From Escherichia coli (GTDB lineage: Bacteria; Pseudomonadota; Gammaproteobacteria; Enterobacterales; Enterobacteriaceae): a DNA stretch of 64,000 nucleotides. Numbering within the stretch: position 1 is the stretch's first letter; each line of letters starts with the position of its first letter. Made by a program: the position numbers and the translations under genes. Shown piece after piece: positions 34,683 to 34,767 of the stretch. Under the pieces are notes generated by a model, which was not told the DNA's origin, did not search any database, and saw only the letters and a program-made list of their open reading frames with translations. The stretch lies in assembly GCF_001677475.2 (NCBI RefSeq), contig NZ_CP015229.1, one strand, 5' to 3'.

Positions 34683-34767
34683 TATTCTTCACTGCGAAGA
34701 AATAGGTAATTTAATCTAAATAATGCCCGTCAAGGATTTGACGGGCATTACTGCAAAGGACGCGCAA

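Follow-up and report, generated by a model that had tools for sequence, protein, structure and literature searches.

We analyzed a 64,000-nucleotide (nt) stretch of Escherichia coli DNA (contig NZ_CP015229.1 of RefSeq assembly GCF_001677475.2; the whole stretch is called the window below), with attention to a perfect stem-loop located immediately upstream of iprA (yaiV). The gene order in the window is that of the hemB-ehaB(yaiT)-iprA(yaiV)-ampH-sbmA region of E. coli. The autotransporter gene ehaB and iprA are separated by a spacer of 85 nt, in and around which the following features are located.

31794-34682, plus strand: ehaB/yaiT autotransporter gene, intact, 962 amino acids (open reading frame list, Pfam Autotransporter beta-domain, RefSeq names).
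34685-34701, plus strand: hairpin 1, a weak AT-rich stem-loop, TTCTTC-ACTGC-GAAGAA (fold and intergenic comparison; terminator score d = -88.8).
34688-34715, plus strand: predicted sigma-70 promoter of iprA, with TTCACT at 34688-34693, a 16-nt spacer and TTTAAT at 34710-34715 (published prediction and conservation).
34696-34716, plus strand: predicted CyuR box (GAAgAAATacTgGtAATTTAaTC in K-12), directly upstream of hairpin 2 (published motif scan, PMC11408624).
34721-34750, plus strand: hairpin 2, a conserved RNA stem-loop (fold, covariation, inverted-repeat scan).
34723-34767, plus strand: 15-codon in-frame extension of the longest open reading frame, MPVKDLTGITAKDAQ, non-coding (orthologue comparison, NCBIfam profile).
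34756-34760, plus strand: Shine-Dalgarno sequence AAGGA of iprA, 7 nt before the ATG, its GGA lying 24 nt after the GGA of the hairpin 2 loop.
34768-35391, plus strand: iprA (yaiV) coding sequence, 207 amino acids plus stop (RefSeq, NCBIfam NF008810, homologue lengths, HTH_46 domain).

Hairpin 2 begins 39 nt past the ehaB stop codon (34680-34682) and has the sequence taatgcccgtcaa-ggat-ttgacgggcatta. Its arms, TAATGCCCGTCAA at 34721-34733 and TTGACGGGCATTA at 34738-34750, are perfectly complementary over 13 base pairs (bp) and enclose the loop GGAT (34734-34737), with a motif of the A(N)GGA type, AAGGA, at 34732-34736. The perfect stem, the 4-nt loop and the distance from the autotransporter stop, all noted in a first-pass annotation made from the letters alone, are thereby confirmed in the sequence, in the RNA fold and by the end of the ehaB/yaiT reading frame at 34682. 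For both strands the 30-mer has a predicted folding free energy of -19.8 kcal/mol (plus-strand z = -7.75, minus-strand z = -7.40), and an equal fold was obtained in 0 of 200 shuffles. The stem contains the GC core GCCCG/CGGGC, and its 10-bp core alone reaches -16.5 kcal/mol. A repeat scan of the whole window identified hairpin 2 as its longest short-range inverted repeat with 100% complementarity. The hairpin ends 17 nt before the iprA ATG and 5 nt before the Shine-Dalgarno sequence, and is followed on the plus strand by CTGCAAAGG, which contains no T-tract; the same annotation had remarked on this lack of a plus-strand U-tract, and our terminator scan likewise leaves the site unflagged. An Rfam scan of 34300-35600 with E values up to 10 returned chance matches only (rli38, E = 1.5; mir-3913; sR2), the best of them far under its gathering score. 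Hairpin 2 is absent from the RefSeq annotation of SK1144, the K-12 record and MG1655, and we found no published description of it at the iprA locus in the literature.

The ATG at 34723-34725 lies inside the left arm of hairpin 2, as had been pointed out, and opens a reading frame of 222 amino acids in frame with iprA. Nonetheless, the true start codon of iprA is 34768. RefSeq places the start of the 207-amino-acid protein at the equivalent of 34768 in SK1144, the K-12 record and MG1655 (394506..395129, NP_414909.2), and residues 16-222 of the long reading frame align to positions 1-207 of the NCBIfam equivalog NF008810 (IprA). The 120 best iprA homologues are nearly all 206-208 amino acids long and cover 91-93% of the 222-residue query, and about 200 homologues likewise begin iprA at the position of 34768. 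The upstream ATG is both in frame and open in 11 of 27 orthologues, which is near the chance expectation of one-third; it has no Shine-Dalgarno sequence and is enclosed in the stem. At 34768, by comparison, the AAGGA element that had been proposed as a good ribosome-binding site is in place, the Shine-Dalgarno block TGCAAGGA is conserved in the alignment, and the stretch around the start (34751-34810) folds less stably than its shuffles do (z = +1.26). On the RefSeq starts, the homologue lengths, the NCBIfam profile and the orthologue count, the 222-amino-acid reading frame was ruled out as a real gene, and since iprA starts at 34768, hairpin 2 is non-coding. A few database proteins (P0011, P0085) carry an N-terminal extension, MPVMDMTGI... 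or MPVMQMAGI...; this 'MPV...GI' peptide is a by-product of translating the conserved palindrome ATGCCCGT...ACGGGCAT. One could take these extensions, together with the in-frame ATG at 34723 and its open frame, to mean that hairpin 2 controls a choice between two iprA starts, with a 222-residue form beginning MPVKDL... made when the stem is melted. The near-chance openness of the extension, the missing Shine-Dalgarno sequence, the profile boundary and the RefSeq start make such a role exceedingly improbable.

To place hairpin 2 in an evolutionary context, we compared 80 iprA loci, one per species genome, together with one Salmonella locus. The order hemB-ehaB-iprA-ampH is kept in nearly all of them. 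A homologue of hairpin 2 is present in approximately 47 of the 80 Enterobacteriaceae loci. It precedes the iprA ATG by 16-21 nt in Escherichia, Citrobacter, Salmonella, Raoultella, Intestinirhabdus, Trabulsiella, Superficieibacter, Yokenella, Phytobacter, Kosakonia, Kluyvera and Pseudocitrobacter, and by 27-36 nt in Buttiauxella. Its distance from the ehaB stop is variable (about 24 to 95 nt). Of 5389 E. coli records, 5148 carry the 70-mer at 34706-34775 unchanged, while no more than 1124 match the surrounding 301 bp at 99% identity or above. The 70-mer is single-copy, with a median of one place per genome in 5387 genomes, and a repeat of the REP/BIME kind was ruled out on this count. Among the rare E. 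coli variants are a left-arm G-to-T substitution and an IS1 insertion in the loop. The latter occurs in the clinical isolate 23AR0998 (locus L089), where IS1 at about 34733 replaces the left arm and everything upstream, such that this strain is a natural mutant whose iprA has neither the stem nor the native promoter.

The pairing of hairpin 2 has been preserved through sequence change. In an unguided MAFFT alignment of 40 sequences, evaluated against 500 shuffles, 90.0% of the cells of the 13-pair helix are paired, as compared to 83.5 ± 0.9% in the shuffles; both sides have changed in 9 of the 13 pairs (4.4 expected), and the covariation score is 0.221 (0.119 in shuffles). Of five covariation measures, four (pairing, pairs changed, score, and cells changed on both sides) were reached in 0 of the 500 shuffles, and the fifth, further pair types, in 12. 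As a control, the 3' partner was slid by one to three columns, upon which pairing fell to 33-46%. RNAalifold independently found an 8-bp core helix in which six pairs are compensatory. Examples of compensatory change include GUCAA/UUGAC to GUCAU/AUGAC, CCCGU/ACGGG to CCCAC/GUGGG in Yokenella, AUGCCC/GGGCAU to AUUCCC/GGGAAU in Phytobacter, and GCCCG/CGGGC to GCUCG/CGAGC in Kluyvera. We give very little credence to the alternative that hairpin 2 is without current function. A separate mini-hairpin of 4 bp, UGCA-AGGAA-UGCA, with the Shine-Dalgarno sequence in its loop, can be drawn in Citrobacter, Salmonella and Kluyvera (34751-34765; columns 48-60 of alignment A3), and a possibly compensated variant, UAC-AUGGAUG-GUA, in Pseudocitrobacter; its pairing (73.1%, against 70.7% in shuffles) offers weak support and we make no claim for it.

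The imperfect pairs of the core indicate which strand, and which molecule, is likely to be under selection. They are G·U on the plus strand in 15 cells, or about 10 independent events by our count, and A·C, equivalent to G·U if the minus strand is read, in 4 cells and about 2 events (Kluyvera cryocrescens/genomosp. 1; Citrobacter Awk4/NCU1). Over the whole helix, 90.0% of cells pair when the plus strand is read, compared to 87.3% for the minus strand. GNRA tetraloops (GCAA, GAAA) occur in Trabulsiella and Enterobacter ENT03. Most taxa have 22 nt from GCCCG to CGGGC, but Kluyvera has 19, Phytobacter and Kosakonia have 21, and Buttiauxella has 23. Because the imperfect pairs are mostly plus-strand G·U, selection appears to act on the structure of the plus-strand RNA, a reading that we favor over a DNA operator or a purely minus-strand element; over the operator it is preferred for the G·U bias, the GNRA loops and the spacing changes taken together.

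We scored terminator potential with a d'Aubenton-Carafa-type function, d, the formula for which reportedly derives from d'Aubenton Carafa et al. 1990. E. coli hairpin 2 has the stable GC-rich stem-loop of an intrinsic terminator but lacks the U-tract (AUUACUGC, of which the U-tract-restored counterpart would be UUUUUUGC), and its scores are as follows, alongside those of its homologues.

E. coli hairpin 2: d -14.6 on the plus strand, a marginal +4.7 on the minus strand.
Salmonella hairpin 2: d -4.2 on the plus strand, +22.4 on the minus strand.
Citrobacter FP75 hairpin 2: d +3.5 on the plus strand, +20.8 on the minus strand.
Hairpin 2 of Kluyvera, Yokenella, Phytobacter, Pseudocitrobacter, Superficieibacter, Enterobacter kpr-6 and MGYG110: d +7.6 to +27 on the plus strand, negative on the minus strand.

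The U-tract is found in the orthologues: past the GC core, 5-7 of the first 8 nt are U in most of those from Kluyvera, Yokenella, Phytobacter, Kosakonia, Pseudocitrobacter, Superficieibacter and Enterobacter kpr-6, and the plus-strand U score exceeds that of the minus strand in 15 of 16 sequences of the Kluyvera/Yokenella/Phytobacter-type group. In the Escherichia/Citrobacter/Salmonella group the plus strand has 3-5 U and the minus strand 3-6.

Hairpin 2 does not stand alone in the spacer. In Kluyvera, Phytobacter, Superficieibacter and throughout the Enterobacter/Lelliottia/Leclercia group, hairpin 1 has the canonical make-up of a terminator, GC-rich and with a T-tract. Outside E. coli, its d in the genera scored lies between -46 and +20, with 5 of 9 values above zero. 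The weak AT-rich form seen in Escherichia, Citrobacter and Salmonella is the decayed remnant of this intrinsic terminator of ehaB. By comparison of the intergenic sequences, the ancestral ehaB-iprA spacer holds two tandem hairpins. Both are retained in Kluyvera, Phytobacter and Pseudocitrobacter; hairpin 1 alone, as a strong terminator, in Enterobacter, Lelliottia and Leclercia; and only hairpin 2 is intact in Escherichia, Citrobacter and Salmonella. Given these three states, ehaB and iprA are never without a stable hairpin between them, which is what redundant tandem terminators would predict. In some loci ehaB has been deleted and hemB lies directly upstream of iprA, namely in Kluyvera cryocrescens, K. 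intermedia and K. genomosp. 1 (loci L040-L042), in Salmonella enterica subsp. arizonae (L062), whose iprA match starts only at residue 34 and whose gene is probably truncated, and in Pluralibacter (L078). In the three ehaB-less Kluyvera species, hairpin 2 is mismatched or rearranged.

Together, these observations lead us to favor, tentatively, the reading that hairpin 2 is a terminator-type hairpin in the iprA leader, that is, a leaky terminator or insulator. Whereas the structure itself, its conservation and covariation, the strand bias, the start codon and the terminator anatomy of other genera are established by the data, we infer such a function for E. coli. Hairpin 2 would be the second of two redundant tandem terminators behind ehaB, where it may limit read-through from ehaB into iprA, uncoupling iprA and holding its expression low, and may also protect or cap the 3' end of the ehaB RNA. 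With hairpin 1 decayed and the U-tract of hairpin 2 eroded, termination in E. coli would be weak, and the erosion makes some co-transcription of ehaB and iprA likely. Salmonella iprA was reportedly placed in a two-gene operon by Herman et al. 2016. The first-pass annotation had offered a choice, between an autotransporter terminator followed by a yaiV start at 34768 and a 5' structure controlling yaiV translation. The start codon of the first option stands, and each of the two roles has proved partly apt. In other genera ehaB has a terminator of its own, the separate hairpin 1 directly past its stop codon, which has decayed in E. coli. As a 5' structure it keeps a fixed distance to the iprA ribosome-binding site, but because it leaves both the Shine-Dalgarno sequence and the true start codon free, simple occlusion of translation is unsupported.

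Several points weigh against the terminator-type reading. No more than 3 of 8 nt in the E. coli plus-strand tail are U, the terminator scan of this site is negative, and a d of -14.6 predicts a non-terminator; d itself comes from our own implementation of the formula. Three features fit a role at the level of the mRNA better than pure termination, namely a stem that is still perfect after erosion of the U-tract, a constant distance to the Shine-Dalgarno sequence, and the A(N)GGA loop. The event counts behind the strand bias are a reading of the alignment and not a phylogenetic reconstruction, and the link between loss of ehaB and decay of the hairpin comes from a single lineage. Finally, the available part of the supplements of an E. 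coli Term-seq study (Adams 2021, PMC7815308) lists no 3' end near iprA/yaiV, an absence that counts for little given the low expression of this locus and the IS3 insertion that splits yaiT in K-12.

The same palindrome can be read on the other strand or as DNA. Hairpin 2 could be mainly a minus-strand or bidirectional terminator that stops leftward antisense transcripts before ehaB, whether these come from ampH read-through or from spurious promoters within iprA. The E. coli minus-strand tail, UUAUUUAGAUU, has 5 U in its first 8 nt, compared to 3 on the plus strand, and scores the higher d of the two; minus-strand scores reach +21 to +30 in Salmonella, Citrobacter FP75 and Intestinirhabdus; and the stops of E. 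coli iprA and ampH abut, so that ampH is without a terminator of its own ahead of iprA. Yet the G·U pairs favor the plus strand, a minus-strand U-tract is missing in the Kluyvera/Yokenella/Phytobacter group, and Salmonella keeps hairpin 2 despite a separate ampH terminator between iprA and ampH. Moreover, the A-rich left flank could equally be the -10-to-+1 segment of an iprA promoter, and antisense promoter-like matches inside iprA number 3, against 2.8 expected from shuffles. On this balance, we consider a chiefly minus-strand or bidirectional terminator quite unlikely. Read as DNA, the 30-bp palindrome could be an operator for a dimeric protein of the helix-turn-helix type, such as IprA itself (autoregulation by a CRP/FNR-like protein) or FNR. 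In favor of this, the perfect palindrome adjoins the promoter of a winged-helix regulator gene; FNR binding and regulation at yaiV have been reported in an hns stpA mutant (PMC3688515), and by our own reading the right arm, TTGAC-GGGC-ATTAC, matches the FNR consensus at 7 of 10 positions. However, the half-sites are oriented GTCAA-N4-TTGAC, the reverse of an FNR box; the arms covary at 9 of 13 positions, leaving no fixed half-site; the mismatches are biased to G·T on one strand, and some lineages have GNRA loops. The arm span also varies from 19 nt (Kluyvera) through 21 (Phytobacter) and 22 (most taxa) to 23 (Buttiauxella), which a rigid dimeric DNA-binding protein would not tolerate. Co-evolution of an autoregulator with its operator could mimic the covariation but not the strand bias or the spacing changes. 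The DNA operator or FNR site was set aside on the variable spacing, the covariation and the strand-biased mismatches, and we judge it highly improbable.

An alternative that accepts the plus-strand RNA but not termination is that hairpin 2 serves as a post-transcriptional element in the 5' untranslated region (UTR) of the iprA mRNA. In one form of this alternative, a stem-loop at the extreme 5' end shields the mRNA from 5'-end-dependent decay; in the other, the loop A(N)GGA and the Shine-Dalgarno AAGGA 24 nt on constitute a two-site module through which CsrA controls IprA translation. This alternative is favored by a predicted iprA promoter within the spacer. Genomic SELEX (systematic evolution of ligands by exponential enrichment) with RpoD gave a holoenzyme peak, along with an H-NS site, in the yaiU>yaiV spacer, where a promoter TTCACT-18-TTTAAT was predicted (PMC3946193); in the present sequence its spacer is 16 nt and not 18 because of a 2-bp deletion. 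Transcription from the predicted promoter would begin at about 34721-34723, on the very first bases of hairpin 2, and the -10-like block GGTAATTTAAT between the two hairpins is conserved in Escherichia, Citrobacter and Salmonella, 5-12 nt before hairpin 2. A promoter of its own also fits the cysteine response of yaiV, which rises by 4.5 log2 when cysteine is supplied and has a CyuR box predicted at -75 (PMC11408624 Table 1), as well as the retention of iprA in K-12 despite the split yaiT. The 17 nt that separate hairpin 2 from the ATG leave no room for a promoter, so any iprA transcript must either contain hairpin 2 or start at its base. Against the 5'-UTR alternative, the predicted promoter is a pattern match, and our promoter scan calls none on the plus strand at the hairpin 2 site. 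The available portion of the Cappable-seq data (Ettwiller 2016, PMC4782308) holds no iprA start site at the 3944xx coordinates or the older 3936xx-3937xx coordinates, and that of the SMRT-Cappable-seq data (Yan 2018, PMC6131387) no iprA transcript start.

Other evidence for a 5'-UTR element comes from the hairpin itself. The distance from hairpin to ATG is fixed (16-21 nt) while that to the ehaB stop varies (about 24 to 95 nt), and the E. coli stem is still perfect even though its U-tract is eroded. The loop motif (AAGGA, ACGGA or AUGGA) keeps its A and GGA with a variable N in about 10 genera, even where the stem has changed; it is present in Escherichia, Citrobacter, Salmonella, Raoultella, Intestinirhabdus, Superficieibacter, UBA5654, Phytobacter and Kosakonia. 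At 24 nt apart, the GGA of the loop and that of the Shine-Dalgarno sequence have the sequence features of a CsrA target under the CSRA_TARGET algorithm, whose window is 10-60 nt between sites (PMC4066749). Salmonella yaiV is flagged as a predicted CsrA target (PMC6347204 S2 Table), and in a Salmonella csrA mutant grown in LB (lysogeny broth) its ribosome footprints changed by -1.32 log2 and its translation efficiency by -1.57 log2, both significant, with the RNA level unchanged, such that the gene is flagged as 'activated by CsrA' (PMC6347204); the half-life of Salmonella yaiV is entered there as NA. This effect could be indirect, however, and is activation instead of the usual repression. In the same table the Salmonella yaiV flag for crosslinking immunoprecipitation and sequencing (CLIP-seq; Holmqvist) is 0, and yaiV is absent from the available part of the supplements of an E. 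coli CsrA CLIP study (Potts 2017, PMC5694010); low expression could account for either result. Kluyvera, Trabulsiella, Yokenella, Pseudocitrobacter and Buttiauxella have no GGA in the loop, CsrA sites need a far shorter stem than 13 bp, and a GGA within a Shine-Dalgarno sequence is common and carries little weight. In addition, Enterobacter-clade iprA genes are without hairpin 2, and in genera with a U-tract a 5'-terminal hairpin would terminate its own transcript. Weighing these points, we regard a post-transcriptional 5'-UTR role, in stability or CsrA binding, as the main rival to the terminator-type reading, possible but rather unlikely. The more specific proposal, in which hairpin 2 is the upstream half of a two-site CsrA module at the 5' end of the iprA mRNA and also a terminator in some genera, is doubtful; if it were true, Csr control of IprA would link carbon and stationary-phase signalling to oxidative-stress tolerance.

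Some further features of the region were noted. The reading frame of ehaB/yaiT is intact here, with 962 residues, unlike the IS3-split yaiT of K-12, and the window accordingly does not come from K-12; among the records found, that of strain SK1144 is closest. The 2 bp (CT) that are missing here, and present in K-12 and many strains, would lie between A34704 and G34705; the deletion falls inside the predicted CyuR box and may alter iprA expression between lineages. The iprA stop (ending at 35391) and the stop of the convergent ampH gene (ending at 35392) abut within 35389-35394, with no intergenic base and no terminator, and the E. coli iprA and ampH mRNAs must overlap as antisense partners. 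In Salmonella, the iprA-ampH spacer is 44 nt and contains a hairpin, GTCGCGCC...GGCGCGAC, with a U-tract on the ampH strand only. The sole terminator-like match in a scan of 34300-35600 lies at 35358-35371 on the minus strand, a 5-bp stem (GGTTGATAGCGACC + AGTTTGCCTT) inside the 3' end of iprA and on the ampH strand, and one such match was found where 1.0 was expected. Other inverted repeats in the window, at 9654-9700, 9427-9466, 3594-3619 and 61083-61110, comprise a 19-nt imperfect pair (GTATCCTGTGTGAAATTGT / ACAATTTCACACAACATAC) and several perfect hairpins of 10-11 bp.

IprA (YaiV) is a conserved regulator that acts as an inhibitor of RpoS- and catalase-dependent peroxide resistance. Its loss is said, by Herman et al. 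2016, to raise peroxide resistance by several logs in Salmonella, E. coli and Enterobacter. The present analysis fixes the start codon of iprA at 34768 and points to selection, as RNA and in more than a dozen genera, on hairpin 2, the sole structured element in its leader. The locus also provides a natural example of tandem terminator hairpins lost reciprocally across lineages, and of a terminator-type hairpin that has outlived its decayed U-tract. For the specialist, this should be a useful annotation and no surprise, as the element is not of a new kind.

In comparison with known systems, hairpin 2 resembles REP/BIME elements in being an intergenic GC-rich palindrome located after a gene, but it is single-copy, has no sequence similarity to such repeats and matches no Rfam family. 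It differs from leader attenuators in that no alternative antiterminator pairing was seen at the hairpin. With CsrA-regulated leaders (glgC, cstA, hcnA; for activation, flhDC and ymdA) it shares an AAGGA in the loop and another in the Shine-Dalgarno sequence, 24 nt apart, and the Salmonella gene is a predicted target whose translation efficiency falls, perhaps indirectly, in a csrA mutant (PMC6347204); the differences are a far longer stem, a loop GGA that is missing in several genera, and an effect that is activation. Like intrinsic terminators, hairpin 2 has a GC-rich stem, a 4-nt loop and an A-rich 5' flank and lies 3' of the ehaB stop, in tandem with an ehaB-proximal hairpin, and its orthologues with a tract of 5-7 U score as terminators; unlike them, in E. 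coli it has an eroded U-tract and is predicted to be non-terminating, and it lies 5 nt from the Shine-Dalgarno sequence of the next gene and so inside that gene's leader. Stabilizing stem-loops of the type found in the ompA 5' UTR were reportedly described by Emory, Bouvet and Belasco 1992. Hairpin 2 resembles these in being very stable, in its predicted position within 0-2 nt of the 5' end if the SELEX-predicted promoter is used, and in being followed by a single-stranded ribosome-binding region, but is atypical in its 13 bp with terminator-like flanks. Hairpin 2 is best described as a fresh instance of familiar kinds of element, either an intrinsic-terminator-like leader hairpin or a 5'-UTR stem-loop.

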